Assembly: GCA_035530295.1 (NCBI GenBank)
Contig: DATKVB010000025.1
Location: 114,552 to 178,551, forward strand
Length of the DNA: 64,000 nucleotides
From: a bacterium
GTDB lineage: Bacteria > Spirochaetota > Spirochaetia > Treponematales > UBA12059
Reading direction: 5' to 3'
Shown here in pieces: positions 23,916 through 40,338 of this stretch (within the stretch, counting starts at the first letter, position 1; every line of letters begins with the position of its first letter). A program made the translations under genes and the position numbers. Below the pieces are notes generated by a model. It was not told the origin of the DNA. It did no database searches and was given only the letters and a program-made list of their open reading frames with translations.

Positions 23916-24287
23916 GTACGGACGTGGCCATCGCATCGTGTCAGCCTCGAACAGCTGTCGGAGGCAACGGACAACGCCGATGCCATCGGCCGCATGACCG
24001 TCTTTGCCCGCGCCTGCGCCTCTCTACGCAGACCCTCGGCTACTAACCGTAGAACCTGGCCATCCTCGTCCCCGGCTTTGGCCAACCTGGTCGGCGTATT
24101 TCAGTCGCAAACGCATCGCGGCAAGAGCCAGGGGGCGCTATGTTCTGTGGAGCGGCAGCCTGTGCCAGATGCGCCCCCTGCCGCGGGCTTCCGCTCCGCG
24201 GGTACGCGGCGCGGCGATCCCGCGGCTCCCCGAAACCCTGGTCATGTCCGCATTGCATTGGAAGCATGCCGGGTTTACTATCAAGCC

Positions 24288-24671
24288 ATGGACACCGCGT
24301 TTTCCGTAGACCCCCAGGACGCCCGCCGCTTCTTCGAGCGCAAGGCGCAAGCCCGGGCGGCCGCTCTCGACCAGCGCTTCGAGCGGGCCTGGGCAGAGGC
24401 GAACGGCATCATGGCGATGCTGCAGAGCGACTATGGCTACCTGCGCATCTGGCAGTGGGGCTCGCTGCTTGATCGTACCAGGTTTTCTGAAATTTCTGAT
24501 ATCGACATTGCCGTGGAAGGCGTCCCGGACACCGCGACGTTCTTCGAGCTCTACGGCAAGGCGATGGCGCTGACGACCCTGCCGCTTGATCTGGTCGAAC
24601 TGGAACGCATAGAACCAGTCCATGCAACTTCGATCCGCGAGCGTGGGAGGCTGGTATATGATGGAAGTTGA
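24288..24671 (+). CDS. Minimal nucleotidyltransferase (MNT) antitoxin
   Basis: WGSLL...SDIDIAVEG (GS-x10-DxD), LDLVEL, IRERG; overlaps the HEPN gene. Confidence 0.85.
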   Translation: MDTAFSVDPQDARRFFERKAQARAAALDQRFERAWAEANGIMAMLQSDYGYLRIWQWGSLLDRTRFSEISDIDIAVEGVPDTATFFELYGKAMALTTLPLDLVELERIEPVHATSIRERGRLVYDGS

Positions 24672-25137
24672 ACTGCTGTTGGCCGAGATTGCCAAGAATA
24701 TCGAAGTTGCGGATCGCATCCGTGACTTTATCGATGCCACCGAGCGCCACGACATAGCCATTCTGGGCAGGACGCCCGCGACGGCCCTCATGATGGCGTC
24801 CATGATCGAGAACTATTATACCTGCCTTGAGACCATGTTCCTGCGCGTTTCGCAGAACTTTGAGAACCATCTGGATGACAAGCGATGGCATCAGACCCTG
24901 CTCGATCGTATGACGCTCCAGGTACCCACGATCCGTGAACGGGTGCTCTCGGACCAGACGAGGAGCGATCTGGGCGAACTGCTCAAATTCAGGCATTTCA
25001 AACGGTATTACTTCGAGTTTGAATACGATTGGGACCGCATCGATTTCCTGCTCAAGAAGCTCAAGGATGTCCACCCGCACGTCAAAGAAGACATGCGGCA
25101 CTTCATGGACTTCCTGCGGGCAGCCGGGGAGAAATGA
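24658..25137 (+). CDS. HEPN-domain (HepT-like) toxin
   Basis: NYYTCLETMFLRV, WHQTLLDRM, ELLKFRHFKRYY; coupled to MNT. Confidence 0.8.
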   Translation: MMEVELLLAEIAKNIEVADRIRDFIDATERHDIAILGRTPATALMMASMIENYYTCLETMFLRVSQNFENHLDDKRWHQTLLDRMTLQVPTIRERVLSDQTRSDLGELLKFRHFKRYYFEFEYDWDRIDFLLKKLKDVHPHVKEDMRHFMDFLRAAGEK

Positions 25138-25230
25138 ATGGAAGTGGCACATTTGCTGGTCTTCTGCAGTGCTTGGTCGAATGCTCGGACACCGGCACCG
25201 CCGCTGGTGGATTGAGGCGGCCACCAGCAA

Positions 25231-25803
25231 TCAGTCTGATTTGCGGGCATGGTATGACACACTCCGTTCCGCTACAAAAAGCCCGGCATCAATGTTCATA
25301 CCGACTTCAGACATTGCCTGCCCATCCATGTCTGTTTTCTTGTTCATGGCCTTGCTGTCATAGAGTTCCAGAAATGGTTCGCCGCCTGCAATCCACTGAG
25401 TAAGCAATTCAATAATGGCAGGCCGTCTCTCCAGGAAGGTGGCGCTCCGGGTTACACATTCCCAGACGACACAGACGCGCCATCCAGCCGCGATCAAGGC
25501 GATGATATCCCTTGCGTCGCGTTCCCTGTTGTGTCCGATCTTGTTTGCCCAGAACTCGGCATTGCTGCCAGGCATCCTGAAGAAACGGCAGTCATGGCCG
25601 TGCCAGAAGCAGCCATGGACAAAGATGACCGCCCGGTACTTCGTCAACTTGATGTCGGGCTTGCCGGGCAGATCGCCGCAGTTCTTGCGATAGCGGAAAC
25701 CCGCAGAGAACAATGCGTTTCGGATCATCCTCTCGGGCTTGGTGTCTGTTCCGCGGATTCCCGCCATCATGCGGCTGCGCGTTGAACGGGAAACGGTATC
25801 CAT
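25231..25803 (-). CDS. vsr: Very short patch repair endonuclease
   Basis: RSRMMAGIRGTDTKPE, LPGKPDI, FVHGCFWHGH, GWRVCVVWEC. Confidence 0.95.
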   Translation of the reverse strand: MDTVSRSTRSRMMAGIRGTDTKPERMIRNALFSAGFRYRKNCGDLPGKPDIKLTKYRAVIFVHGCFWHGHDCRFFRMPGSNAEFWANKIGHNRERDARDIIALIAAGWRVCVVWECVTRSATFLERRPAIIELLTQWIAGGEPFLELYDSKAMNKKTDMDGQAMSEVGMNIDAGLFVAERSVSYHARKSD

Positions 25804-25831
25804 GGCCACGAGTATGGCTCATCAGCGACCG

Positions 25832-27058
25832 TTAGTCGATCATGATCAGCGGCTTGATGAAGCGCGCCACGGCGGCGAAGACAGGTACGGCGACCGAATT
25901 CCCGAACTGCTTGTATGCCCGGGTATCAGAAACTGGAATAATGAAACTATCAGGGAATCCCATGAGCCGTGCGCATTCGCGCGGCGTAAGCCTTCTTGGG
26001 TTCCGCCCCGCCTGCGCTATGAGAATTTCCGATCCATCCTTGTAGTATCGTGCGGAGAGGGTACGGGCAACCGAAGTCTCGGTGCAAAGACCATACCCAA
26101 AGCCATTGCCGAGCGAACGATGCTTGTCAGCATAGGATTGCAGGTATGCCCACAGCTTGTCGCTCAGGGTGTATTTGTCCTGAACCTTTCTCGTGCCGTG
26201 ATCGAAATAGCTGGACCCATCATGATCAAGAAAAGGCTCTGTGCCATCTGTCCTGTGAAGAATATCTCCAAGAACGGTCTTCTGCTTGTCTGGAAATGCG
26301 AACGAGTCCAGGTCGAACAGGACTGGCTCCCTGAAGCCGACGATAACGATTCGCTCTCTGTGTTGCGGCAGCCATTGCTGCGCATCCAGGATTCTGTATT
26401 GTACTGAATAGCCAAGGTCGTCCCTGAGTGTACTCAATATTACCTTGAACGTATTGCCGTGATCGTGAGAGTGGAGATTCTTCACGTTCTCCAGCAGAAA
26501 TGCCTTCGGTCTTTTCTCCGCGATGATGCGTGCGACATCAAAGAACAGCGTACCTTGCGTCTTGTCAGCAAATCCGTGCGCCCTTCCGAGGGAGTTCTTC
26601 TTGGAGACCCCAGCGATCGAAAAAGGCTGGCAAGGAAAGCCTGCGACCAGAACATCATGGTCAGGTATGGCATCGGCCGATATTTTCGTTATGTCTCCAT
26701 GAATGGGAGACTCATCGGGAAAATTGACGCCGTAGGTCTTCTGCGCATAATCATCCCACTCCGACGTGAAGACGCAGTGGCCTCCGACTGATTCGAAGGC
26801 AGTCCGCAGCCCTCCAATGCCGGCGAACAGATCTATGAAGGTAAAATCATGTCTTCCTTCGTTCTCGTGCTGTATGGCTTCCCTGATGATTGAGTGAAGA
26901 GCCTCTATGACATAGAACTTCGGTACGGTCTCCCCGTTGCGCCAGCGCCGCACCGTAGTGACATTCACGTGCAGTAATTTGGCTATATCGGACAAGGATT
27001 TGAATCGAAGTGCCTGTTCGAGGAGCGTATTGACGCTGGTGTCTTCTATATCTGCCAT
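25832..27058 (-). CDS. dcm: C5 DNA cytosine methyltransferase, Dcm/EcoRII-like, with N-terminal HTH
   Basis: IDLFAGIGG, GFPCQPFS, LENVKNL, PQHRER, LSARYYKDGSEILI, QFGNSV; N-terminal IAKLLHVNVTTVRRWRNG HTH. Confidence 0.93.
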   Translation of the reverse strand: MADIEDTSVNTLLEQALRFKSLSDIAKLLHVNVTTVRRWRNGETVPKFYVIEALHSIIREAIQHENEGRHDFTFIDLFAGIGGLRTAFESVGGHCVFTSEWDDYAQKTYGVNFPDESPIHGDITKISADAIPDHDVLVAGFPCQPFSIAGVSKKNSLGRAHGFADKTQGTLFFDVARIIAEKRPKAFLLENVKNLHSHDHGNTFKVILSTLRDDLGYSVQYRILDAQQWLPQHRERIVIVGFREPVLFDLDSFAFPDKQKTVLGDILHRTDGTEPFLDHDGSSYFDHGTRKVQDKYTLSDKLWAYLQSYADKHRSLGNGFGYGLCTETSVARTLSARYYKDGSEILIAQAGRNPRRLTPRECARLMGFPDSFIIPVSDTRAYKQFGNSVAVPVFAAVARFIKPLIMID

Positions 27059-27153
27059 ATTCACCACCTCGGGGAGAGATCCAGTACAGTATGCATTATT
27101 ATTTCCCCATAGGCAATACTGAATCGGTGCCAGTTTCTTTCCGATAATCGGGT

Positions 27154-28464
27154 ATGGCAATGACAGACTACAGAGAATTGGCCCGACACTTGAACTCGCT
27201 AGGGGTTACCCGCGCATACATGAAGGCGCTGAGCAACAATGACAATAGCAAGAATCAGATCTATTTGGGACCAAGTTTTGAGGCATTACAGCTGTTGCCC
27301 TTCGGCGAGATCCTTCAAGGAAGCGCCGGAGCCAATCCAAATCTAAAAGCATCCGTAAATTTCTTCTGGCTTTCCGAATCCGGTCGATTGGAAAGGGCCA
27401 TATATGCACAGCTCATCCTGTACCCGCAGTATCCGGAAGTCAGGCTTTCCGGCTTTTTGAAGGGCTGTGTTGCAGCACCTTCTGAATATTTGCGGCCCAT
27501 TGCAAGAGAGCAACGGACAGATAAGGACGGCAGATTTCTGATTCTCGGCGTAACCCCAGACGATCGCATCATCGGGTATCTGGCAGCACCGGGCAGGCAG
27601 GTCGCCAGGTCGATAGAAGCTGAATTTGAACAACTTTGCGGCAAGAAGCTATTCGTCGACTTCCCGCTTGGCAATCAGTCGGCTTTCTCAAGAAAGCTCA
27701 TGCTTATCGCGAAGCTCACGCAAATCGTCCATGCTGGCTGGCATCCATCTCAGAGACTCGACGCCGAAGGGCGTATGCTGAATTATGAAGCGCCGAACGC
27801 TGGAGGATACACTCTTGAATCATTATTTGGGATCATCCCGAACGGCATTTCAGAGCCCGATTACCTAGGATGGGAGCTCAAGGCCTTTGGGGGAAATCGC
27901 ATAACGCTAATGACTCCGGAACCAGACGCAGGATATTATGGAGAAAATGGCGCCGCAGCCTTTGTCCGGAAATATGGGCATGATGCGGGAAATGATACGA
28001 TATATTTTACTGGTATACACAGAGCGAATAGTCGAAATGATCTGACCGGGCTCACGCTCTCGACAATAGATTATGATGTAGTTCACGACAAGTTTACGGG
28101 CATCAATGGCGGATTGGCATTGTTCACCGATTCCGGAGAACCGGTGGCAATCTGGACTTTCAAACGACTCATCGCACACTGGGCAAGAAAACATGCATTG
28201 GCTGCATATGTAAAATACGAGAAGAGCGAAATCCAAAGCAGGCTGAATATTCGCTATCTCGCTCCAGCTCACTTGGGGGAAGGAACTGATTTTTCAAAAT
28301 TCATGGCTGCTTTCATTCAGGGAACGATCTACTATGATCCCGCACCAAAACTGTCCAAGGCAAGTACGCCGCATTCCCGCGTCAAGGCCCGCAGTCAATT
28401 CAGAATCAATAGCACGAGCCTCGGCGTTCTATATCACTCTTTCACAGACGAGCAGCTTCAATAG
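27154..28464 (+). CDS. MvaI/BcnI-family restriction endonuclease
   Basis: NDNSKNQIYLG, PEVRLSGFL, GYTLESLFGI.PN...PDYLGWELK, ITLMTPEP, RSQFR; divergent from the MTase; visibly AT-richer than flanks. Confidence 0.85.
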   Translation: MAMTDYRELARHLNSLGVTRAYMKALSNNDNSKNQIYLGPSFEALQLLPFGEILQGSAGANPNLKASVNFFWLSESGRLERAIYAQLILYPQYPEVRLSGFLKGCVAAPSEYLRPIAREQRTDKDGRFLILGVTPDDRIIGYLAAPGRQVARSIEAEFEQLCGKKLFVDFPLGNQSAFSRKLMLIAKLTQIVHAGWHPSQRLDAEGRMLNYEAPNAGGYTLESLFGIIPNGISEPDYLGWELKAFGGNRITLMTPEPDAGYYGENGAAAFVRKYGHDAGNDTIYFTGIHRANSRNDLTGLTLSTIDYDVVHDKFTGINGGLALFTDSGEPVAIWTFKRLIAHWARKHALAAYVKYEKSEIQSRLNIRYLAPAHLGEGTDFSKFMAAFIQGTIYYDPAPKLSKASTPHSRVKARSQFRINSTSLGVLYHSFTDEQLQ

Positions 28465-28525
28465 CGGAGGGCTCGAGTCGCCAGAACGCCATTATTGTCA
28501 CAGATTCTTGGATGGTATTAGATCG

Positions 28526-28918
28526 TCAGCCTGTCGATGATTCAGTCTTCCCTCTCCCACCAACCACCCGCCTGACGCCGCCGCGCGGATTGGGTACGTC
28601 GCCCGCGTACCGTGGAATGACATGCACGTGCAGGTGGAACACGGTCTGGCCGGCGGCCGCGCCGATGTTCATGCCGATGTTGTAGCCGTCTGGCGAGCGG
28701 GTCCTCTCGATGGCCTCCCTGGCGGCGTCGATAGCGGCCAGCAGCTCGGCCCGCTCCGCTGCCGTCGCGTCGAACCAGGATGGAACATGGCGCTTGGGTA
28801 TCAAAAGCGCGTGACCTGGCGATGCCGGGTGCGAGTCCCAGATGCCAAATACCAGGGTGCCATCGTAGAAGCGCTGTTCCTCTGGAATATGACAGAAGGG
28901 GCAGTTCGGTGTGCTCAT
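28526..28918 (-). CDS. HIT-family protein
   Basis: CPFC, PASPGHALLIPKRH, GYNIG.N.G..AGQTVFHLHVHVIPRY.GD..NPRGGVR. Confidence 0.9.
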   Translation of the reverse strand: MSTPNCPFCHIPEEQRFYDGTLVFGIWDSHPASPGHALLIPKRHVPSWFDATAAERAELLAAIDAAREAIERTRSPDGYNIGMNIGAAAGQTVFHLHVHVIPRYAGDVPNPRGGVRRVVGGRGKTESSTG

Positions 28919-29023
28919 GTCGTTCTCCCGGACCAGCGTACACCCGGCCTCGCTCCCCGTCCATGAATTCGGTGGCTTCATGGATCAGTCTTTATGCCTA
29001 TACGGGATGTTTCTGGTTCTAGC

Positions 29024-29203
29024 TCAGTCTGCCATGAGGCTCTTGAGTATCTTCCTGGCGAGTGGTTCTTTTATTTCCGTATGACGAGGAACGGCCTCTA
29101 TCACTCCGTTTTTTGGATTGATCCAGAGCGAATGCGAACTGCCTTCTCGTTTTAGATAGCAGCCGGCGAGTCTCAAGGCGCGTTCAAGATCTTTTCGCTT
29201 CAT
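29024..29203 (-). CDS. hicA: HicA-family toxin (59 aa, absent from the ORF track)
   Basis: Manual translation MKRKDLERALRLAGCYLKREGSSHSLWINPKNGVIEAVPRHTEIKEPLARKILKSLMAD; ATGA overlap with hicB. Confidence 0.88.
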   Translation of the reverse strand: MKRKDLERALRLAGCYLKREGSSHSLWINPKNGVIEAVPRHTEIKEPLARKILKSLMAD

Positions 29204-29421
29204 CCCACTGACACGGCTTCTTGAATGGCATCGGACGGCAAGCCTCGAAGAATATCCTCCCGGCGATCCTCAAGAATCAGTTCGATGGCTTGCCTTAGAT
29301 TGTCTTTGGCTTCTGCGATAGTGTCGCCCTGACCATTGGCTCCGGGTACTTCAATGCAGATTGCCCAGTATCCGCCTTCTGGGGCTGCTTCCATGATTGC
29401 GGTGAATTCAGCTTTCATCAT
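29200..29421 (-). CDS. hicB: Short HicB-family antitoxin
   Basis: EGGYWA...EVPGANGQGDTIAEAKDNLRQAIELIL; no C-terminal DNA-binding domain; GGAGG RBS. Confidence 0.88.
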   Translation of the reverse strand: MMKAEFTAIMEAAPEGGYWAICIEVPGANGQGDTIAEAKDNLRQAIELILEDRREDILRGLPSDAIQEAVSVG

Positions 29422-29532
29422 CAACCCTCCATGATCATCTAATGCAATAGTACCTAAATTCTGACTCTTCTGATAGTGGCTTCCCTGTGCCTGCCGGTCA
29501 TAGCGTGCATGCTGGCGTGCGACTATCTACAA

Positions 29533-29784
29533 GCGGGGGAACCACAGAATGACGCGGGGGAACCATAGAACGTCGCGAAGTAATCATGGAACGTCGCGGG
29601 GGAACCATAGAACGTCGCGAAGTAATCATGGAACGACACGGGGGAACCATAGAACGTCGCGAAGTAATCATGGAACGTCGCGGGGGAACCATAGAACGTC
29701 GCGAAGTAATCATGGAACGACACGGGGGAACCATAGAACGTCGCGGGGGAACCATAGAACGTCGCGAAGTAATCGTAGAATGAC
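29533..29784. repeat. Tandem array of 12 x 21-bp units of two alternating types
   Basis: A = GCGGGGGAACCATAGAACGTC, B = GCGAAGTAATCATGGAACGTC; order A,A,B,A,B,A,B,A,B,A,A,B with minor variants. Confidence 0.95.
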
Positions 29785-29812
29785 GAGAACCTATGAACAG
29801 GGTTGCGCACAC

Positions 29813-30770: not shown

Positions 30771-30819
30771 GAGCCCGTCGGGCTTTGCCGGTTCTCCGCT
30801 CAGGATCTATACTCGTTCA

Positions 30820-31542
30820 ATGCGGTTGGGTCGGACTTCAAATGATGGCGAGTTCATACTCATGCTGGGCGATCGGGCCCATGTGGTTCGGTACTGGCAG
30901 GGTGGTACGCGGATAGGTGTTCAGGCGATCACGGGCGAACGGCAAGCCGCGGCGCAGGCATCGCGTTCAATCAGGGTCGATCCGCCAGCCGGAGCCACCC
31001 TCGTCGTCGACGCCAGGTTCTGGTCAGGACTGGCAGCGGATGATGCGCGCATCCTGTCTGGCCTCGCCGCGATGATAATCGCCGAATTGGCTGTCGCCGA
31101 GCCCGGCTCGGAGGCGCTGGCGGGCGCCTATGCTTTGGAGTTCGTAATCATCGCGGGGCGAATCGCGGCGCGCGGCGCTCGCTTTCTGGGAGCGTCGGGT
31201 CAGTGGGTCGAGCCCGATGGTGTCTGGTGTATCGATGACGCCATACGCTACATCGAACGCAACTATGCCGAGTCCTTTAGCCTGGACTGGTTTGTATCGC
31301 GCTGCGCCATCAACGTAACCGACTTCTCGAGGCGCTTCAAGGAGAAGGCAGGCTGTCCGCTCTTCGAGTTCATTAACCGCCAGCGTGTCGCGCGCGCCTG
31401 CGCCCTGCTTAAGTCCTCTGACCTGTCGATCATCGACATAGCGGAGGCGGTGGGCTACAACAATCTGTCTTTCTTCAACCGCTACTTCCTGCGCATCATG
31501 GGCCTTTCGCCCCGCGCGTACCGTACAGGTTCCGCAAAATAG
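30820..31542 (+). CDS. AraC-family transcriptional regulator
   Basis: C-terminal AIRYIERNY...FSRRFKE...IIDIAEAVGYNNLSFFNRYF..IMGLSPRAYR. Confidence 0.88.
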   Translation: MRLGRTSNDGEFILMLGDRAHVVRYWQGGTRIGVQAITGERQAAAQASRSIRVDPPAGATLVVDARFWSGLAADDARILSGLAAMIIAELAVAEPGSEALAGAYALEFVIIAGRIAARGARFLGASGQWVEPDGVWCIDDAIRYIERNYAESFSLDWFVSRCAINVTDFSRRFKEKAGCPLFEFINRQRVARACALLKSSDLSIIDIAEAVGYNNLSFFNRYFLRIMGLSPRAYRTGSAK

Positions 31543-31624
31543 TATCAGTGGCGGCCTCCACAAACTGAACATAGTGCAAGACCGCGCGCGAGAACCGTCC
31601 TATAGTCCAGGTATCAGGGAGGAC

Positions 31625-31903
31625 ATGATGGAAACCGATGATGGACCGGGTCAGGGTTGCGTGGCGATCGGCCAGTTGTCGCTTGAGGCCAACATCGTGG
31701 TTGCCGGCTCGAGCATGAGCGCCATGGATGTTGATCGAGCTCGAGGCGCCGGTCGCCTTGACATGGCCGTGCCGGCGGATCAGTCAGTCTACCTCGAGGT
31801 GGGTGGCGTCGTCGTGGCGGCGGGACTCCTCAGGAAGAAGCGCGGAAGCAGCGTGTTTGTGGTGACGCGGATGATGGCAGATGGCCAGGAGGTGCGGTTA
31901 TGA
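31625..31903 (+). CDS. Small protein, probable degenerate SPOA (FliM-C/FliN-like) domain
   Basis: LEANIVVAG...VYLEVGGVVVAAG.L.....VFVVTRM parallels the SPOA strand pattern; GGAGG RBS; ATGA overlap with fliN. Confidence 0.55.
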   Translation: MMETDDGPGQGCVAIGQLSLEANIVVAGSSMSAMDVDRARGAGRLDMAVPADQSVYLEVGGVVVAAGLLRKKRGSSVFVVTRMMADGQEVRL

Positions 31904-32145
31904 GGACAGGAACAATAGAGGATGCGATGGTGCGCATGCAGGTTGTACTGGGCGAGCGGAGCCTCTCGGTGCGCGACCTGTCGACAATAGCCAAGGGTTC
32001 GATCATCGAGCTCGAGTCCATAGCCGGCGAGCCGGTCGACCTGGTCGCCGCCGGAGAAGTCGTGGCCAGGGGAGAAGTGGTCATCATCGACGAGGCTTTT
32101 GGCATCCGGGTCACGGAGCTTGTCAGCCCGAGGAACGCGTCATGA
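31900..32145 (+). CDS. fliN: FliN-like flagellar switch protein (SPOA domain only)
   Basis: VVLGER.LSVRDL....GSIIELE..AGEPVDL...GEVVARGEVVIIDE.FGIRVTE. Confidence 0.88.
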   Translation: MRTGTIEDAMVRMQVVLGERSLSVRDLSTIAKGSIIELESIAGEPVDLVAAGEVVARGEVVIIDEAFGIRVTELVSPRNAS

Positions 32146-34031
32146 GCGCCGCCATCATCGACGACGCCATCAGCGACGCCAGCAGCGACGATGCCATCGT
32201 TCCGTTGCCCGCATCCATTCTGGGATCGAGGGATGGCAGGGTCGAAGGCAGGAGAATCAAGCGGTACGACTTCAGGCGGCCAGACAAGTTCTCAAGGGAA
32301 CAGCTGCGCACCATGCAGAACATCGCCGAGTCATTCTCCCGTCTTGCTTCCACGCGGCTGTCCGCGTCACTGCGCCTTCCATGCGATCTGTCGCTTGAGA
32401 CCGTTGACCAGCTTACCTACGACGAGTTCATGGCGCCGCTCGCATCGCCATGCGCCCTGGCTATCGCGACTATGGAACCGCTGCGGGGCCAGGTCGTCAT
32501 GCACCTTGACGCGGCGGCCAGCGACGCCATTCTGGAGCGGACCTTTGGCGCGATGCCGCTGCCGACGCCACCGGCGAATCCGCAGCCGCTGGCAATCGGC
32601 GGCCTTACCGACATCGAGGTGTCGCAGCTGGAGCGCGTCGTCACTTCGACTCTGGACGCGCTGGGAGCCGCATGGTCCTTCGTCGATGGTATCAAGCCCA
32701 GGCTCGAGCAGGTGGAGACCGAGGCGCGCTTCTGCCAGGTCGTGCCGCCGCGCGAGATGATAGTGCTGACATCATTCGTGCTGAGCGTTGGCTCGGTCAA
32801 AGGGAAGCTGGACATCGCCTATCCATTCCTGGTGCTGGAGCCGATCATCGGCATGCTGTCGGCCAGGTACTGGTTCGAAAAGCGCAACCCTGTGGAGTCA
32901 GGCCCCGGCGCCGTCACCGCGTGGCGCGCCCCGATGCCGGCCGAGCTGATGCTTGACGCTGGCGCATTGTCCATAGATGCGCTGCGTTCGCTCCGCAAGG
33001 GAGCCATCGTGCCGGTTCCCGACCTTGACAGAGGCCTTGGCTGGTTGCGGCTCGGTGGAGCCAGGGTAGCCGGGCTTGTGGATGTTCGCCGGGGCGATGT
33101 TCGCCGGGGCAGCGCCGCGGTAACCGCCGCCTTCGCTGACGCCGGTGCCGCCTCGAAGAGTGCCGTCGAGTCGAGGCAGGATCCCATGGCGCGCATGGCA
33201 GAAGAGGTGCGCGGCGGCATCACCGCTATCAATGCCAGCGTGTCGGCGGCGATGCAAACCATGGCCGCCCGCATCGACGAGCTCAAGGGTGGCCAGGAGG
33301 ATCTGTCCGACCGTATGCTCTTCGGGCAGTCAGACGCTTCGCTCGCCCGACCCGCGGCCAGGCCATTCGCCTCGCTCGCGGGTGCCCCGGCCGAGGCGCT
33401 GGCTCTGTTCCTCTCGGGTGAGCGCCCCCAGGTATGCGCCCTTATCCTGTGCCATGTCGATGATGGAATCGGGGCGCGGCTGCTGTCGCTTCTGCCCGAG
33501 GCCGTGCAGCCCGAGATAATGCGCCGTGTCGCGTCTATGAGCGGGGTGGCTCCAGACGTGCTGGCCGATGTGGAGCGGATACTGGACGTCAAGTTGTCTG
33601 CCATCGACAGGGCAGGCCCCGAAGCCGGAGGCATCGACAAGGCTGTCGGCATGCTGAACATGGTTCCACGCGAGGTGGAGAAGCGCGTCATAACGAGCCT
33701 GGACCGGACCGATCCGGAAATGGCCGAGTCTATCAAGCGCAGCATGTTTGTATTCGAGGACATCGTGCTCCTCGACGACGAATCGATACGCGCCGTATTC
33801 GAAGCGGCCGACGAGCGCGACATCATACTCGCTATGAAGCCGGTGGCCGAGGAGTTGCGCGAGCGCCTCTTTGGCCGATTTCCCGAAGACCGTCGTGAAC
33901 GCCTCCGGGCTGAATTCGCGAAGCTGGGTCGTATGCGGCTGGCCGAGTGCGACGCGGCGGGGTTCCGCATTGTCGAGGAGATACGGCGGCTGGAACAGGA
34001 AGGCCGCATCGTCATCATGCGGGATCGTTGA
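32142..34031 (+). CDS. FliM-FliG fusion protein (FliM middle plus degenerate SPOA, linker, FliG middle and C-terminal domains)
   Basis: FliM motifs YDFRRPDKFSREQLR, VDQLTYDEF, LTDIE, QVVPP.E, YPFLVLEPI; FliG motifs PF..L, ERPQ..ALIL, GG, MFVFEDI, IRRLEQEG.I in one uninterrupted 629-codon frame. Confidence 0.85.
   Translation: MSAAIIDDAISDASSDDAIVPLPASILGSRDGRVEGRRIKRYDFRRPDKFSREQLRTMQNIAESFSRLASTRLSASLRLPCDLSLETVDQLTYDEFMAPLASPCALAIATMEPLRGQVVMHLDAAASDAILERTFGAMPLPTPPANPQPLAIGGLTDIEVSQLERVVTSTLDALGAAWSFVDGIKPRLEQVETEARFCQVVPPREMIVLTSFVLSVGSVKGKLDIAYPFLVLEPIIGMLSARYWFEKRNPVESGPGAVTAWRAPMPAELMLDAGALSIDALRSLRKGAIVPVPDLDRGLGWLRLGGARVAGLVDVRRGDVRRGSAAVTAAFADAGAASKSAVESRQDPMARMAEEVRGGITAINASVSAAMQTMAARIDELKGGQEDLSDRMLFGQSDASLARPAARPFASLAGAPAEALALFLSGERPQVCALILCHVDDGIGARLLSLLPEAVQPEIMRRVASMSGVAPDVLADVERILDVKLSAIDRAGPEAGGIDKAVGMLNMVPREVEKRVITSLDRTDPEMAESIKRSMFVFEDIVLLDDESIRAVFEAADERDIILAMKPVAEELRERLFGRFPEDRRERLRAEFAKLGRMRLAECDAAGFRIVEEIRRLEQEGRIVIMRDR
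33081..33110 (+). repeat. In-frame 15-bp tandem duplication (DVRRG x2)
   Basis: GATGTTCGCCGGGGC repeated twice inside the fusion gene. Confidence 0.9.
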
Positions 34032-35340
34032 GGTTTGACTCCAGGCAGACATGCAGGCCGGCCTTGACCAGCCGTCTAAAGAACAGGCGCTCCACGTCGT
34101 TCCTGTCGCACAGGCTTCCAAAGCTTATGGACAGGACATCGCCGTGGCTTGTCATCGAAGCGGATGTCTTGATGGTGGGCGCGCAGTTCACCAGGATGTC
34201 CAGCCACTTTACCCTGGACGCGATCGGCTCGGGCAGATTCGCCTTGCCCATGTTGGACAGCACGCCGCTGAACAGCCTGTCGCCATAGATCTGCGACAGT
34301 GCGCGCATCAGCATGTTCTTGAGGGGAAGCGGCAACATGCGCACGAGGATGCTGCGCGACGCTTCCACATTACGCGTGATGATGCGCGTCAGCTCGCCCT
34401 TGTGCATGCCCAGCACCATCTGGCTGTGCACCGACTTGAGAATCTCATCGAAACTGTAATGCGCAAGCCTCGTGTCAAGCTGTGGCGTCAGGAAGAGGCT
34501 GAAATTGCGCATCGTCACCGATGGAAACACGAGGCGCATGTTGGCGGGGATTTCCAGCTTGATTGGCAGGCGCCTGAACCGGCTTGTGCCTGTAGATTCG
34601 GCTTCCTGGATATCCTGCAAGACAGCCAGGTACTGGGCGGCCATGTACTCGGTCAGGGTCGCGGCGTGACTCTTCGCCACCGCCAGGGCGGCCCGTGCCG
34701 ACAACCTGCCGGTCGTGATGCGCAGCTGGCCCAGCGGCAGTATCGCACCGGGTATGTGCCAGGCTGGCTTCTCCATCGGCGGGGCGGGCATGCCAGGGAC
34801 GCTATAGCGGGCGAATGAGTCTTCCCATTCTCCTGGTTCCGGGCTGCCCAGGGGGTCAAGGACTCCGTCTCCGTACTGAACATCGAGTCCGGACAGCCTG
34901 AAATATTCGCCCAGCAGGGTCTTGAGGAGTATCATGCCTCCGGTACCATCGGTGATGATGTGGCTTATCTCCAGGGCAATCCTGTCACGGTATACCCTGA
35001 CGCGATACAGGTGGGCGCCGGGGATGCCGGCCTCGGGCAGCTGCATGGGGTATTTTGAATCGGAGATGGGGGCCAGCGGTTCGCGGTTGCGCTCGAAGTA
35101 GTACCAGAACATTCCCCGGCGCATCTCGACATGGTAGTAGGGCAGGCGGCGGCTTATGGCCCGTATGGCCGTGGCCAGCATGTCGACATCCACCGGCCTG
35201 TCCAGTACAACCTGCAGCCTGAAGAAGGCCGTTGTCCTGGCGTTCATGTTGGCCGGATATATGACGGCCGCATGGTCAAGTGAAAACCATGGCGGCATGC
35301 GCGGCTGTTTTCGTCCCGTATCCATCGTCGATTCCGGCAT
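34015..35340 (-). CDS. CoA-dependent acyltransferase (alcohol acetyltransferase/condensation-like)
   Basis: HxxxDG motif SHIITDGTG, WFSLDHAA..YP, PANMR..FPS.TMRNF, LSNMG. Confidence 0.75.
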   Translation of the reverse strand: MPESTMDTGRKQPRMPPWFSLDHAAVIYPANMNARTTAFFRLQVVLDRPVDVDMLATAIRAISRRLPYYHVEMRRGMFWYYFERNREPLAPISDSKYPMQLPEAGIPGAHLYRVRVYRDRIALEISHIITDGTGGMILLKTLLGEYFRLSGLDVQYGDGVLDPLGSPEPGEWEDSFARYSVPGMPAPPMEKPAWHIPGAILPLGQLRITTGRLSARAALAVAKSHAATLTEYMAAQYLAVLQDIQEAESTGTSRFRRLPIKLEIPANMRLVFPSVTMRNFSLFLTPQLDTRLAHYSFDEILKSVHSQMVLGMHKGELTRIITRNVEASRSILVRMLPLPLKNMLMRALSQIYGDRLFSGVLSNMGKANLPEPIASRVKWLDILVNCAPTIKTSASMTSHGDVLSISFGSLCDRNDVERLFFRRLVKAGLHVCLESNLNDPA

Positions 35341-35349
35341 GCCCGTGCC

Positions 35350-36771
35350 CTATTTCTTCCGTGTCTTCTTTGCCAGGGTCTCGTCGAATACGACAACCGT
35401 TCCGGCCATGTTTATGACATCGCCCGACTCGAGGCGCTTTCGCGTCACCTCATGGTTGTTTACGGTAACCGGCGTGTCCGAGACCACCGTGTATATGTTC
35501 TTGGCCTCGTCGAACAGGATGGTCGCGTGTGACGCCTTGAGCGATGGATTGCCGGCTATGCTGATGTCGGCATCGGGAGCCGCTCCTATGACGGTCTGGG
35601 CGCCGGCGAGTTCAAAGAATCGTGTCGACGCGGGGCCGCCGCCGGGGCCGAAGAGGAGGCGCACGCCGGCACGGTCGGTCTCGCGCTCAAGCTTGAACAG
35701 CACGAGCGCCAGCCATGCCAGCGCCGCTATGCCTACGAACGCCAGGTACCAGACCGGCGGCCTTTGCGCGCTCTGTCCGAGCACGGTGCCGGTAAAGTAG
35801 TAGCGTGTCGCGGAAAGCTTGCGCCCGTCGGTGGTGCCGGTGGCCACGCGGACCCAGCGCTTCTCGCCGCGGGCCATGCCCGCGCGGTAGTCAACCGATA
35901 TTTCGGCAAGTACGTCCTGCCGTATCGTCTGATACACGTCTGCCAGCTCGTCGCCATCCTTCGCGTCAAAGGCGCGGCCGCCGGATTCACGGGCTATGTT
36001 CGCTATCTGCGGGTCGCGCTGTGAACCGAACCTCACGGCGTACACGGTGATGCCATCGCGTATTGCCTGGTCGATGACGCCCGCCGGGGTCGCGGTCGCG
36101 GTGCCCGATTCTGGATTGGGCTTGCCGGTATTCAGAGCGTACGGGTAGTTCTCGCCATCGGACAGGACAATCAGCACGCGCCGTCCAGACTCGGCCGCGA
36201 AGTCGCCAAGGCTGCGGCCAATGGACAGGTATAGCTCGGTAAAGGCGTCAGCCGGGGCTGGACGGCTTATCTCCTCCAGACTGCGCGCGGCATCGGCGCT
36301 CTGGCCACCCGGCGCGACCGCGCTCCAGAACCTGGTATTGAACACCGCAAGGCCAACGCGGTCCTTCGGCGATAACGCGCCCAGGAACGAGCGCGCGGCG
36401 ACCTTGGCGCGTTCAATGCGCATGTCGGCCGCGACGGTGGTTTCCTTGCCGTCCATGTCTGTCCACATGCTGCCGGAGTTGTCCAGCAACAGGAAGAACG
36501 ATATGCCGGCGTCAGCGTTTGGTTGAAGCGATACGTTTGTCACGGGCCGCGGCTGCCAGTCCTTGGCGTCGGCCGATTCCCAGACCTCGAACAGAGGTGG
36601 CTGTGTTCCGGGCGTTGTACCGAGTATTGGTGCCGAGACGTACAGCCTGGTTGTCTGGAGGCCCAGGAGCTTCTCGGTGCCTATCTGCGTTATGGACATG
36701 CCCTGGGCTCCGGCCACAGCGGCGGCGGCGCACAGCAGACCGATTGCCAGCGCGTATTTGAGACTCTTCAT
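35350..36771 (-). CDS. Membrane protein with extracytoplasmic vWA domain and cytoplasmic FHA-like domain
   Basis: Signal peptide, MIDAS LLDNSGSM...LSDGEN, one TM (VWYLAFVGIAALAWLALVLF), C-terminal FHA fold (TVIG, DISI, HA, L.SGDVI). Confidence 0.85.
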   Translation of the reverse strand: MKSLKYALAIGLLCAAAAVAGAQGMSITQIGTEKLLGLQTTRLYVSAPILGTTPGTQPPLFEVWESADAKDWQPRPVTNVSLQPNADAGISFFLLLDNSGSMWTDMDGKETTVAADMRIERAKVAARSFLGALSPKDRVGLAVFNTRFWSAVAPGGQSADAARSLEEISRPAPADAFTELYLSIGRSLGDFAAESGRRVLIVLSDGENYPYALNTGKPNPESGTATATPAGVIDQAIRDGITVYAVRFGSQRDPQIANIARESGGRAFDAKDGDELADVYQTIRQDVLAEISVDYRAGMARGEKRWVRVATGTTDGRKLSATRYYFTGTVLGQSAQRPPVWYLAFVGIAALAWLALVLFKLERETDRAGVRLLFGPGGGPASTRFFELAGAQTVIGAAPDADISIAGNPSLKASHATILFDEAKNIYTVVSDTPVTVNNHEVTRKRLESGDVINMAGTVVVFDETLAKKTRKK

Positions 36772-36797
36772 GGCGATGCTCCTGTTCTCGGGGCGGA

Positions 36798-37691
36798 TCA
36801 TCCGAAGTACCCGTATATGAATTTGGCCTTGCCTACGGCCACCACATCCTCGGGCTTGAGCGAACGACCGGCCGGCGGTTCGTCGTTGACCAGGAGACGT
36901 GCCCCGGCCTTCTCCTGCTGGAGTAGCACCTTGCCCTTGGCGAGGTGGACCGTGGCGTGCAGTGGTTCGACATCGGGATAGCCCTTGAGGACGATGTCGC
37001 AATCAGGCGCCGCGCCTATCTTCATGGTGCGGCTCAGTATGCTGTATTCCTTGCCCTTGAGCGGGCCGTTGAGGAGCATCAAGGCGCCCGACGAGAATTG
37101 GTTCTCGAACACCGACCAGAAGATGCTCAGCGACAGGCCAAAAAGTGCAAGCCCCGCGAGCAGGGACAGCGGTTCGTCGGGAAAGAAGAACGAGAGGCCG
37201 GCAAGCGCGCTTCCGCCGGCCAGCCCGCCCAGCACTCCGCCCGCGAGTCCTACGAGGATCTTGCGTGTCGAACGCGCGCGGAGCCCCTCGGTCAGGGCCA
37301 GGAATATGCCGACTATCGTCCACGCGACGCCGCTGGCCACGGCAAGGCCCACGCCATTGCGCGCGCTCGCGGTGCGCCACAGTGACGAGCCCGCGGCGAA
37401 GAGGAACACCTGGCCGGCCATCACGCCCAGCGCTCCGGCAATCGAGCCGAAGACGGCCCCGAAGAGCAGCCCCTTGAAGGCCTTTGACCTCGACGATACG
37501 ACGACGCCCTCGAAGGAGCCGAACAGCGCTCCGAAGACCAGCCCCAGGAGCACACCCTGGGCCAGGGAGAACAGGAGATAGCTCGGGAACTCCTGCTGGT
37601 AAAACTGCAGGGCAAGAAGGAGCGGCCAGAGCGCCAAGGCTCCCAGTAGGCCGAAAACGGCCAGAAAAATGCGTTTCAGCATAAGCGACAT
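36798..37691 (-). CDS. Polytopic Gly-rich membrane protein with C-terminal FHA-like domain
   Basis: About six TM segments, then L.LLNGPLKGKEY.I....KIG...CDIVL...HA...L..EDVV.VGK. Confidence 0.8.
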   Translation of the reverse strand: MSLMLKRIFLAVFGLLGALALWPLLLALQFYQQEFPSYLLFSLAQGVLLGLVFGALFGSFEGVVVSSRSKAFKGLLFGAVFGSIAGALGVMAGQVFLFAAGSSLWRTASARNGVGLAVASGVAWTIVGIFLALTEGLRARSTRKILVGLAGGVLGGLAGGSALAGLSFFFPDEPLSLLAGLALFGLSLSIFWSVFENQFSSGALMLLNGPLKGKEYSILSRTMKIGAAPDCDIVLKGYPDVEPLHATVHLAKGKVLLQQEKAGARLLVNDEPPAGRSLKPEDVVAVGKAKFIYGYFG

Positions 37692-37703
37692 CGATGTCTC
37701 CTT

Positions 37704-39308
37704 TTACTTTTGTCCACCCAGGGGTGGGAGCAGGGCCGACAGTATGAGCCTGTCATGGTCAGCGGCTATCTTGAGCGAGAATACCTGCGGCTCGTATCCG
37801 TCTGACTCGACGCGGAACTGGCGTACGGCGCCCGTCGTCAGCCAGCCCTCGGGAAGTTCCTCAGGCGGCACCCAGGAACCATTGGCCATGACCATCAGCC
37901 TGGCCGGAATATCCAGGCCATCGACCGAGTCACGCGCCGTCGCCGTCACCGACAGCGGACGCTTTCCTTCCTCCTCGGTGCGCATATGCAGGTCCATTCC
38001 CTCTGTGCCTCCTGGCGCGGAGAATGGCATGACCCTGAAGCATTCCCAGCGCACCGTGCCGCCGACTATAAGCTTGAGCCGGTACGCTCCAGGAGCCAGG
38101 AACAGTCGCCCTGACTCCAGAGAATAGTACGGGTCAGAATCGGCTGTTGGCATGAACGCCAGCGTCAGAGGCGACAGGCTGGATTCGGGCATGTCCTTGC
38201 CATCATCGATGAACAGCCTGGCCCGGACGAACAGCTCCTCGGCGCGCTTGTCGGACTTGGGCACACGCACGGTCAGGCGCAGCTGGCCATACGAGTCGGG
38301 CATCGCCCAGCGGTAGACGTACCCCGCGTGCCAGGCATACCAGCCGCCGGCCGACATGGCGCCAAGGATGATCAACAAGAGCGGCAGCACCGAACGCTTG
38401 CGCCGTGCCTTTGGATAGCGAGGCTCATCGACAATGGACCCGTGCATAAGCCCGACCAGGGCGTTGACTATGGGTTCGGATCTGTAGCGCCGCAGGTATC
38501 TCTCTATGACCAGAACCAGCTTGTCCATGCTCTGAAAGCGTCTGGCAGGATCGGGCTGCATCAGCTTGCGGATTAGTCTGTCCACAAAGGGATGCACGCG
38601 GCCATTGATCCTGCCAGCACGCCGATACCGGCCCTTGCGTATCATCACGAGGGTCTCGGCCGAGAAGTTTCCGGGATACGGTTTCTTGCCCGTTACCATC
38701 TCGTAGAGCATGACGCCAACAGAATAGATGTCGGCCCGCTTGTCGACATTCTTTGAGTTCTCTATCTGTTCAGGCGGCATGTAGCATGGGGTTCCAAGCG
38801 TCATGCCTTCCTTGGTCAGGCCAGCGTCGTTGTCATCCTCGGAGGCCGCGATGCCGAAGTCGGCCAGTTTTATATCGCCCTTCCTGGATATGAGAATGTT
38901 GCCCGGCTTCACGTCCCGATGTATGACGCCCATGGAGTGGGCATAGGCAAGCGCCTTGCAGACCTGCAGCACGATGAAGAGCGAGAGTTCGCTCGACAGC
39001 GATCGCTGCTTCTTTATCAGCTGGTCAAGAGACGTGCCATCGACATACTCAAGCACCATGTAATTGGAATTGCCTTCCTTGAAGTGATCGAACACCTGCA
39101 CGATGTTGTCGTGCTTGAAGTCCATCAGTATGCGGGCTTCTCGCTTGAAGCGTTCCGCGATTGATGAGCTGCCCCGCATGGTCAATTTCTTGAGCACCAC
39201 GTAGCGCTTGAGCGTCGGGTGCACGGCCTTGAGCACCGCGCCCATGCCTCCGCGCGCGACCAGTGACTCGATCCTGTATTTTCCTATGTACTCGGGCAGC
39301 TCGGCCAT
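37704..39308 (-). CDS. Hanks-type Ser/Thr protein kinase with TM and extracytoplasmic C-terminus
   Basis: RGGMGAV, VVLK, RFKREA, HRDVKPGN, DFGIA, GTPCYMPPEQ, DIYSVG; TM at about residues 310-330. Confidence 0.95.
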   Translation of the reverse strand: MAELPEYIGKYRIESLVARGGMGAVLKAVHPTLKRYVVLKKLTMRGSSSIAERFKREARILMDFKHDNIVQVFDHFKEGNSNYMVLEYVDGTSLDQLIKKQRSLSSELSLFIVLQVCKALAYAHSMGVIHRDVKPGNILISRKGDIKLADFGIAASEDDNDAGLTKEGMTLGTPCYMPPEQIENSKNVDKRADIYSVGVMLYEMVTGKKPYPGNFSAETLVMIRKGRYRRAGRINGRVHPFVDRLIRKLMQPDPARRFQSMDKLVLVIERYLRRYRSEPIVNALVGLMHGSIVDEPRYPKARRKRSVLPLLLIILGAMSAGGWYAWHAGYVYRWAMPDSYGQLRLTVRVPKSDKRAEELFVRARLFIDDGKDMPESSLSPLTLAFMPTADSDPYYSLESGRLFLAPGAYRLKLIVGGTVRWECFRVMPFSAPGGTEGMDLHMRTEEEGKRPLSVTATARDSVDGLDIPARLMVMANGSWVPPEELPEGWLTTGAVRQFRVESDGYEPQVFSLKIAADHDRLILSALLPPLGGQK

Positions 39309-39324
39309 GTTCTTCTCCTGGGTA

Positions 39325-40338
39325 TCAGCCGCCGGTCAGCCGGCAGCTGATATCGCGTATTTCTCCGATATCGAGCGATGGTTCAACGTCGCGGTCAGGC
39401 ATTACCCAGGCTACGACATACTTTCTGGGATTGTGTATCTGCAAGTGGCTGCCGTCAGATCGCTCCCGGTACAGGGTAGGGATGACGCGGTGCCCGGTAA
39501 AGAAGCGCGGTCTGGCGACAGTGGGCAGGAAGCGCGCGAGCAGGCTGGTCACCGATCCTGGCTCGGCGGCATCGTTGTCCGTCCATGTGAGGCCTGCCAC
39601 CACCTCGGGCAGGCTTCGCGCGTCTACTATCTCGGACTCCGTATAGGGCCGTTCCGGTTCGGCATGGGACGCCAGGAATCGGCCACCTATGGCGAACAGG
39701 GGCAGGGCGCGCTCGAAGGCGGCGTAGCGGTTCAGGAAATCGTCGCCATAGAATTGCCTGAGCCAGGTCAGGACCATGTCGCCTTCCAGCACGAACTTGC
39801 GGAACGGGTGGTTGCCGTTGCCCTCCTCGTTGAGGACGTTTTCGTGGTTGCCCTTGAGGAAATGGAAGTGCCTCGGAAACGATATCTTGGCCAACATCAC
39901 CATCTCCATCAGGGCCATGCTCTCGGCCATCTCCTGGTCCATGGCGGCATGGTGCCGGTAGCCATCCAGGTACTCTTCGAATGCCGCTTTCCATCGGTCC
40001 AGTGCGCGTGCCTCCGCGTGAAAGCCGTCGCCCAGGCACAGAAGCTGCAACTGGCCGGCCGCCAGTGCGTCGCGCACCGTGCCGCCGCCGGGCAGGGGGC
40101 TCTCCATCAGGCTCAGGAAGAAGCCGGTACGGGCATGCAGGTCGGGCACGATGATTGTCGGCAGGGCCGGGTTGAGCCTGAGCAGTCCGCCGGGCAGGCC
40201 CCGCGAATCGGCAGGGCGAATGTCAGGCGGTTCTCCCATCAAGACGGCGGTGGCCGCGTCCGCCAGGGCCGCGTAACCCGCCGCGGGCGGCGGATCCGGC
40301 CTCATGAACGCCGTTACCATCGGGTTGCGCGGTTTCAT
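39325..40338 (-). CDS. Calcineurin-like metallophosphoesterase
   Basis: PDLHAR, LGDGFH, KGNHEN, SHAEP, TGH. Confidence 0.85.
   Translation of the reverse strand: MKPRNPMVTAFMRPDPPPAAGYAALADAATAVLMGEPPDIRPADSRGLPGGLLRLNPALPTIIVPDLHARTGFFLSLMESPLPGGGTVRDALAAGQLQLLCLGDGFHAEARALDRWKAAFEEYLDGYRHHAAMDQEMAESMALMEMVMLAKISFPRHFHFLKGNHENVLNEEGNGNHPFRKFVLEGDMVLTWLRQFYGDDFLNRYAAFERALPLFAIGGRFLASHAEPERPYTESEIVDARSLPEVVAGLTWTDNDAAEPGSVTSLLARFLPTVARPRFFTGHRVIPTLYRERSDGSHLQIHNPRKYVVAWVMPDRDVEPSLDIGEIRDISCRLTGG

Follow-up and report, generated by a model that had tools for sequence, protein, structure and literature searches.

The flagellar cytoplasmic ring (C-ring) is built from protomers of one FliG, one FliM and three FliN subunits, as known from Salmonella (8umd and 8wiw), Thermotoga (FliM–FliG, 4fhr) and Borrelia (in situ). 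According to a report on the Salmonella ring (10.1101/2024.04.30.591856), the FliG:FliM:FliN stoichiometry is 1:1:3, residues 34–45 of FliM strap onto the FliN dimer of the previous protomer, the amino-terminal domain of FliG (FliG-N) and FliF-C form a separate inner ring, R281, D288 and D289 cap the torque helix, and the C-ring is 160 Å high. PMC4030992 assigns binding of the MS ring to FliG-N, torque to the pairing of R281 with MotA E98, and stator placement to the pairing of D289 with MotA R90. Here we describe a four-gene cassette in a 64-kb stretch of a spirochaete genome (contig C25, positions 114552–178551; hereafter referred to as the window), which encodes an AraC-family regulator, a small SPOA-like protein, FliN and a single-chain fusion of FliM with the middle and C-terminal domains of FliG (FliG-M and FliG-C). 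The cassette is a real, conserved accessory module. It has in common with the C-ring protomer the FliM middle and SPOA domains, FliG-M and FliG-C, FliN, the strap, the Gly-Gly hinge and the MFxF motif, but it joins FliM and FliG in one chain through a predicted coiled coil, includes two different short SPOA genes, lacks FliG-N, the peptide that binds phosphorylated CheY (CheY-P) and Arg281, and is located, together with its own AraC gene, outside the flagellar operon.

Several other systems bear comparison. FliG1, which is non-essential and polar in Borrelia according to two accounts (10.1101/2020.05.18.101634; PMC7225975), is likewise an extra paralogue outside the operon and, both in Borrelia and in the present genome (contig C13), is of a type without Arg281 (0 of 4 FliG1-type rows). 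However, FliG1 forms a separate clade, is a stand-alone FliG with an N-terminal region and no FliM fusion, and has neither SPOA partners nor an AraC gene alongside (locus L003). The Campylobacter and Helicobacter C-rings, with both FliY and FliN, also show SPOA duplication with divided labour, but those paralogues are the core of the sole C-ring (PMC6946799), whereas the cassette provides a second, accessory set whose FliG is fused and apparently torque-less. The injectisome sorting platform SctQ/SctQ-C (SpaO, Spa33, YscQ and HrcQ) contains divergent SPOA heterodimers of matching fold; SctQ, however, is without FliM middle or FliG domains, and the present genome is without a second FlhA/SctV, FliI/SctN or FliF/SctJ. 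Closest in proposed action, although the proteins are unrelated, are EpsE, MotI and YcgR/FlgZ, conditional proteins of other folds (glycosyltransferase and PilZ) that slow or disengage the motor via FliG, FliM or MotA and are controlled by operon induction or cyclic di-GMP. To our knowledge, none of these is a C-ring paralogue, the known brakes and clutches being foreign rotor- or stator-binding proteins. No description of a natural FliM–FliG fusion or of this cassette was found in a literature search that left subscription papers and supplements outside its scope.

A switch-protein cassette outside the flagellar operon

The four open reading frames (ORFs), all on the forward strand and located where the preliminary description of the window put them, are given below with the domains of the fusion. 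Conservation values refer to family representatives. These are the at least 87 full-length, single-stretch fusions of 540–680 residues found among the best 150 rows when a profile was searched against 1.84 billion 50%-identity representatives; a handful of the lowest-scoring ones may be independent fusions. Models were made with AlphaFold2 (AF2).

30820..31542, + strand: araC, AraC-family regulator, 240 residues (Pfam HTH_18, E = 3e-20, and HTH_AraC)
31625..31903, + strand: divergent SPOA-fold protein, 91–92 residues (start at 31625 or 31628; HHalign, AF2, Foldseek, VIA)
31900..32145, + strand: minimal FliN, 81 residues, SPOA domain only (Pfam FliMN_C, E = 1e-19)
32142..34031, + strand: FliM–FliG(M,C) fusion, 629 residues, single open frame (Pfam, AF2, Foldseek)
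32256..32297, + strand: FliM strap, residues 39–52, YDFRRPDKFS (mean identity 0.77, 87 representatives)
32265..32858, + strand: FliM middle domain (Pfam, Foldseek)
32919..33134, + strand: divergent FliM C-terminal SPOA domain, residues ~260–331 (AF2 strands and helix)
33183..33338, + strand: 52-residue linker helix (348–399) with a 3-4/3-4-4 hydrophobic stripe, in place of FliG-N (AF2, 87 representatives)
33393..34016, + strand: FliG-M and FliG-C, with ERPQ for EHPQ, Gly-Gly and MFVF kept, and a recharged torque helix

As first described, ATGA overlaps at 31900 and 32142 couple the three structural genes, araC (30820–31542) lies directly upstream of them, and all three carry switch-complex domains, by Pfam for FliN and the fusion and by SPOA fold for the 91-residue product. 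The coupling extends to the loci of relatives, where the SPOA-like frame overlaps FliN in 25 of 25 cases and the FliN and fusion frames overlap in 20 of 21.

The genome (3.4 Mb, assembly 99% complete) has a complete canonical flagellar operon on contig C3, in which fliF, fliG, fliH, fliI, motAB, fliL, fliM, fliY, flhA and fliA were read from translations, with fliG, fliM and fliY at 254–266 kb; the FliG1-type gene lies outside this operon, as does the cassette. The cassette therefore does not hold the sole copies of these genes but is an extra, which agrees with the preliminary description. FliF, MotA, FlhA, FliI and FliH are each encoded once (tblastn, E 1e-4), indicating that the genome has no second basal body, stator or export gate and, for want of a second SctV, SctN or SctJ counterpart, no injectisome. 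Within the window, tblastn gave no match for FliF, MotA, MotB, FlhA, FliI or FliH, and no CheW domain, methyl-accepting chemotaxis protein or receiver domain mapped there; the earlier statement that the 64 kb lack fliF, motAB, export and che genes holds for these proteins, fliP/Q/R and cheR/B/D/X not having been individually searched. A second FliL-like gene (C18:16515-16796) and FlgE-like matches (C7:6425-8074) also lie outside the main operon.

The 91-residue protein has no Pfam or NCBIfam match, but it has the SPOA fold and is homologous to FliN. HHalign aligns it with the cassette FliN at 94% probability (E = 9e-8), and its AF2 model (predicted local distance difference test score (pLDDT) of 80) retrieves only SPOA chains among the Foldseek rows listed to rank 34 (best E = 1.8e-3). 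VIA superposes the model on Salmonella FliN (8umd_D) with Z = 7.4 and a root-mean-square deviation (rmsd) of 3.0 over 78 residues, the first unrelated row scoring 2.8. The fold resembles injectisome SctQ-type SPOA chains as closely as FliN, and basic residues stand in place of the FliN GEVVVI strand. The cassette FliN retains the FliY strand GEVVxIDE.FGxR and is 49% identical to the C terminus of the genome's FliY. The SPOA domain of the fusion would pair with FliN, and FliN with the SPOA-like protein.

Anatomy of the FliM–FliG fusion

Pfam assigns FliM (PF02154, E = 1.5e-42) to residues 42–239 of the fusion, FliG_M (E = 4e-22) to 418–489 and FliG_C (E = 2.6e-27) to 519–625. The AF2 model (mean pLDDT 78.5, predicted TM-score (pTM) 0.53) places in order the FliM middle domain, a small β/α domain at about 260–331, a single helix at 348–399, FliG-M and FliG-C. 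The CheC-like FliM middle domain superposes on 4fq0, 4gc8 and 4fhr with an rmsd of 1.8–2.8 (Foldseek); its kinship with the CheC/CheX/FliY phosphatases, whose catalytic motif is ExxN, is one of fold only, and no Asn is conserved among the fusion positions at 85% identity. Although the C-terminal SPOA region gives no Pfam match, the fusion aligns over 308 columns with full-length Salmonella FliM in C-ring structures (Foldseek), which argues that the SPOA domain is present, and a SPOA-like profile matches the corresponding region in a related genome (G024, E = 3.8e-4). The strap is the most conserved segment of the fusion and the torque helix is among the least conserved (mean identity 0.29). 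Relative to the Salmonella protomer (10.1101/2024.04.30.591856), the cassette supplies all parts except FliG-N, and fusion residues 39–52 align with the FliM strap at 34–45.

FliG-N gives no PF14842 match in the fusion at E 0.1, and the TIGR00207 match is confined to profile positions 112–330. In its place, linker positions 360, 363, 367, 371, 374, 378, 381, 388 and 392 are hydrophobic in 81–100% of the representatives, and Gln occupies position 385 in 64 of 87; such a conserved, continuous hydrophobic stripe is the signature of a coiled coil, as which we predict the helix. At 1.5 Å per residue the linker would span about 78 Å, about half the 160-Å height of the ring, and could reach from the bottom SPOA ring to FliG-M.

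The CheY-P peptide is absent from all 33 fusions compared and present in 29 of 29 canonical FliM proteins; a relaxed form of the motif, which we take to be LSQxEIDxLL and which occurs in the genome's own FliM, is found in 4 of the 87 representatives. The torque helix is similarly altered: the sites of Arg281, Asp288 and residue 289 are Asp583, Ala590 and E591 here. Arg at the 281 site is found in none of 31 cassette fusions and 3 of the 87 representatives, against 51 of 51 canonical FliG proteins, and an acidic residue occupies it in 35 of 87. Acidic residues are present at 288 in 5 and at 289 in 9 of the 31 fusions, and in 51 of 51 canonical FliG proteins at each site. The Gly-Gly hinge and MFVF (the MFxF motif) are retained, the FliG C-terminal segment at residues 596–627 has a mean identity of 0.60, and the PEV motif is degenerate in the fusions. 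The FliG-binding loop of FliM reads FGA plus an insertion here, not FGGxG, and the FliM-binding motif of FliG, EHPQ, reads ERPQ. Arg at the latter position is shared by 28 of the 31 cassette fusions (ERxQ), whereas 41 of the 87 wider representatives have His, and 65 of the 87 have Gly-Gly in the FliM loop. Because both elements are canonical in much of the wider family, this interface is probably still a FliM–FliG contact. By its features the fusion falls outside canonical FliM, canonical FliG and FliG1, although it is built from their domains. Links outward to the membrane anchor, chemotaxis input and stator have been removed, and ring-building parts have been kept.

Distribution, ancestry and promoter of the cassette

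Of 61 genomes searched, 30 gave a fused match, several of them only as pieces at contig ends. The family accounts for 25 of these (37 genomes searched, with the window's genome, G000, among them) and the other families of the order for 5 (24 searched). In 27 of 30 loci examined (25 genomes), FliN directly precedes the fusion; two of the others are cut by contig ends and one is a canonical fliM. All 27 have the SPOA-like gene, and 25 have AraC, the other two ending at a contig edge. An even sample of the phylum (401 genomes) yielded seven genomes with a full-length fusion, two with a frameshifted one and one with the small genes at a contig edge, and the cassette was found in none of the 50 sampled genomes of family f3. 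AraC takes an upstream position at some of these phylum-level loci, and four (L158, L159, L160 and L162) have it immediately downstream, so that the linkage survives rearrangement; wherever a locus extends far enough to tell, AraC adjoins the cassette. Related loci in named records are spirochaete assemblies (L004 is 61% identical over the whole fusion), and the Atlas cluster of the fusion has 130 members, most commonly Spirochaetota, with the phylum known for 47. Flanking genes differ between loci. This patchy distribution lends sequence support to the term accessory in the preliminary description.

The structural genes are under purifying selection, with ratios of nonsynonymous to synonymous substitution rates (dN/dS) of 0.205–0.30 for the fusion (7 of 7 pairs), 0.02–0.21 for FliN (11 pairs; lowest or near-lowest in most pairs) and 0.11–0.44 for the SPOA-like gene (8 pairs); the value for the DNA-binding part of AraC is 0.10–0.33 (9 pairs), and the pairs are not mutually independent. 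With carriers in about half of the relatives searched, these values show that the cassette is neither unique to this genome nor decaying.

In a quick tree of 86 FliG-M/C rows, from which most Treponema and Bacillota rows were left out, 31 fusion halves lie on one side of a branch (Shimodaira–Hasegawa-like approximate likelihood-ratio test (SH-aLRT) 94), and FliG1, represented by four rows only, forms a clade (SH-aLRT 100) apart from the fusion clade and from canonical FliG2. In a quick tree of 59 FliM middle domains, from which 10 of the 33 fusions and 7 of the 29 canonical sequences were omitted, the fusion halves cluster with FliM of spirochaetes, apart from five outgroups that are not spirochaetes (98), and branch outside the canonical FliM proteins of the class to which the window belongs (97). 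In both trees, resolution is limited by long branches. They suggest an ancient duplication among the spirochaetes, after which the fusion evolved fast.

Other arrangements were also noted. G033 carries three divergent whole cassettes (L123, L124 and L125), at 45, 38 and 38% relative to the query. All three have an AraC gene and a promoter repeat of their own; the G033 assembly is 88% complete with 4% contamination, and a binning error is possible. The fusion is split by a single frameshift in L158:3872-7239 (G332) and L164:4034-6099 (G380), and since the copies break at different places, a programmed frameshift was rejected in favour of decay or assembly errors. In L158, a further fliM gene immediately precedes the cassette. 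In P0022, the first 40 residues are a canonical FliM N terminus joined at YDFRRPDKFS; this is probably an assembly chimera, or else a gene conversion that restored the CheY peptide. Ten further single chains (P0097, P0133, P0140, P0160, P0091, P0149, P0122, P0138, P0147 and P0152) include FliM with two SPOA domains plus FliG, with or without FliG-N; FliM–DUF4116 repeats–FliG; FliM plus complete FliG; and FliG-M before FliM-SPOA. Extra fliM- or fliN-like genes outside a cassette occur in L163 (G171), L165 (G423) and L186/L187 (G052), and G052 has two canonical-looking fliM genes.

The region upstream of the structural genes contains the following elements.

31535..31546, + strand: upstream half-site of a direct repeat, CAAAATAGTATC, which overlaps the araC stop codon and lies 32 bp before site 2
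31567..31582, + strand: downstream half-site (site 2), GAACATAGTGCAAGAC, a predicted AraC site that matches the core and overlies the -35 position
31601..31606, + strand: -10 hexamer TATAGT, with TA and the last T conserved at a fixed distance from site 2
30785..30813, + strand: candidate sigma-70 promoter of araC (TTGCCG, 17 bp, TATACT), read from the sequence

At least 14 of the 16 positions of a core between the araC stop and the SPOA-like gene match in 20 of 26 regions. The spacing from the upstream copy to site 2 is exactly 32 bp in 18 of the 26 and 33–34 bp, with a good match, in three more, and a TA-x-x-x-T hexamer follows the repeat at a fixed distance in relatives' regions. The preliminary description had noted TATAGT at 31601 without a good -35. 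The absence of a proper -35 is real and is explained by the conserved repeat that covers this position, as for an AraC-activated promoter; AraC-family activators usually bind tandem sites on one helix face, the proximal one over the -35. AraC would thus bind the direct repeat and activate the cassette operon. A matrix trained without the window scores its site at 55.8 bits; the genome's next best is 17.5 bits, and a scan of the 3.4 Mb found no second site near the cassette score that would indicate a wider regulon. The dedicated regulator and its unique promoter give sequence support to conditional, AraC-controlled expression, as previously suggested. In distant loci, the promoter matrix at fixed spacing does not score above background; by eye, one or both half-sites are recognizable upstream of the SPOA-like gene in L159, L161 and L164, and L157, L158, L160 and L162 are ambiguous, so that the motif is established only within the order. 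In one relative (L120:4822-5487, G008), an unrelated ORF lies between the direct-repeat promoter and the SPOA-like gene. The candidate promoter of araC itself ends 6 nt 5′ of its ATG, which would allow a leaderless transcript, but none of the 18 relatives checked has it at that position, and a conserved leaderless promoter is not supported.

AraC has a strongly conserved double helix-turn-helix domain and retains dimerization-type helices, whereas its N-terminal domain is highly variable, with an eroded cupin in this lineage that gives no Pfam match in the window. A distant orthologue (L158) has weak ExsA_N and AraC_binding matches below the cut-off (ExsA_N, E = 8e-5). Atlas feature similarity to cupin/AraC_binding clusters (0.87–0.90) provides a lead only, and every row in a comparison of the effector domain with Atlas structures had a TM-score below 0.5.

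Candidate roles in the flagellar motor

We favour, at slightly less than even odds (about 0.45), a model in which the protomer encoded by the cassette is inducible and stator-blind and, once in the C-ring, damps or uncouples the motor. Under an inducing condition, AraC would act at the direct repeat to switch on the operon; the fusion, FliN and the SPOA-like protein would assemble one C-ring protomer with FliM and FliG-M/C pre-joined; the linker coiled coil would clamp neighbouring fusion copies; and the products, by means of their retained ring-building surfaces, would be built into the C-ring, of which the cell has a single type. Stator-blind, signal-deaf patches in that ring would lower torque and switching, as a clutch or damper. 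With one motor type in the cell (and exactly one fliF in 9 of 9 other carriers tested), a conditional dummy subunit is the simplest use of such parts, and a dedicated regulator with a single target promoter fits a conditional modifier. The low dN/dS of FliN and its kept FliY strand would be expected if the cassette FliN meets conserved flagellar partners. The earlier proposal that the products brake or remodel the motor fits the loss of the torque charges, CheY peptide and FliF anchor, and leaves a free scaffold as the alternative. If the model is correct, a regulator-linked paralogous protomer controls the motor by altering ring composition. In a further-reaching reading, which we hold short of an even chance, free-living spirochaetes would use the transcriptionally switched single-chain protomer to build a second kind of rotor ring or ring sector, with the coiled coil taking over nucleation from FliF and with neither stator nor CheY recognized. 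This would be a gene-encoded clutch made of the rotor's own parts and the first motor control through exchange of paralogous rotor subunits. The cassette also provides a natural experiment on the need for FliG-N and FliF in ring formation, on protomer exchange and on the number of torque-competent FliG subunits per motor, and its three genes, for a covalent 1:1 FliM–FliG chain and a pair of small SPOA partners, make a compact reagent for reconstitution and cryo-electron microscopy.

Several observations weigh against this model. A protomer without FliG-N has no tether to FliF, and a ring of fixed FliF number may not accept additional subunits. Judged from branch lengths, evolution of the fusion is far faster than that of canonical FliM and FliG, and the alteration of both the FliM loop and EHPQ in this lineage suggests weaker mixing with canonical subunits. 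A pTM of just 0.53 means that the model does not fix the domain arrangement. The basic residues that we take to correspond to K264 and R297 (the spacing was checked on Thermotoga FliG and is consistent with Borrelia K275/R292/E299/D300) are kept in 81 and 79 of the 87 representatives, and 7 of 87 retain both a basic residue at 281 and an acidic one at 289, so that some stator contact may remain. As 393 of the 401 sampled genomes have FliM or FliG matches, co-occurrence with flagella tells little.

A coiled-coil-type helix exactly at the former FliG-N position would also suit a free ring or oligomer that never joins the motor, nucleated there in place of FliF and FliG-N, with the FliG-M of the fusion capping its own FliM loop. 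Such an assembly would act as a sink or platform for FliH–FliI, FliY and FliM and tune flagellar assembly or number; FliN binds FliH through its GEVVV strand. The cassette's own, translationally coupled SPOA partners, the quick divergence from canonical subunits and the tendency of the loop and EHPQ to change together in the derived lineage are in line with this, the last being phylogenetically confounded: among the 87 representatives, a non-Gly loop occurs with Arg in 11 and His in 5, and a Gly loop with His in 36 and Arg in 9. We regard it as the strongest rival of the favoured model, though an unlikely one. Against it, selection on the whole FliG C-terminal domain, as at residues 596–627, would be superfluous for a FliH sink, and no partner gene travels with the cassette. 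That the CheY-P peptide and an intact PEV motif are gone while the switch hinge is kept could instead mark a direction or gear determinant, a protomer that locks the ring conformation (CheY-independent clockwise or counterclockwise bias, or polar asymmetry) with little loss of torque. According to 10.1101/2020.05.18.101634, the motors of one Borrelia pole bear an unidentified density on FliM, for which FliG1 is a mere candidate; a role of this kind has been proposed for the density and for FliG1. The genome already holds FliG1, however, the cassette was not found in many flagellated spirochaetes (as in the f3 sample) although polar asymmetry is general, and the loss of Arg281 points to torque loss and not to bias alone; we consider this lock improbable.

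The variable N-terminal domain of AraC, the weak ExsA_N match and the single genomic target of the motif would accord with a non-flagellar signalling scaffold, in which C-ring parts act as a sensor feeding back on AraC by ExsA/ExsD-type partner switching and the fusion or SPOA protein is its protein ligand. A regulator whose sole target is its own inhibitor has no output, and the genome scan gave no other regulon member, which leaves this scheme a slim chance. A decaying duplicate or assembly chimera, for which the single frameshifts in 2 of 10 phylum-level carriers, the patchy presence and the chimeric look of P0022 might speak, is scarcely credible: it is largely refuted by the distribution, the 87 full-length clusters at 50% identity and dN/dS; moreover, the frame is open in the window, and the promoter and gene coupling are conserved.

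Neighbouring features of the window

The upstream TauE gene and the downstream convergent gene were rejected as cassette members, as no neighbour is common to more than 6 of 29 clustered regions. The convergent gene (34015-35340, - strand; 441 residues), which has no Pfam or NCBIfam match, overlaps the 3′ end of the fusion by 17 bp and leaves no space for a terminator. By eye, the segment at 23994-29424 has the look of a small defence island, with what we take to be a nucleotidyltransferase and HEPN-like pair, a Vsr-like endonuclease, a cytosine methyltransferase, a restriction-endonuclease-like gene, a HIT protein and a HicB-like ORF. Repeated peptides in three frames mark a tandem array (period about 21 bases) at ~29520-29810. 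On the reverse strand at 35350-40338, genes for a vWA-FHA protein, a membrane FHA protein, a Ser/Thr kinase and a phosphoesterase-like protein, likewise assigned by eye, form one run.

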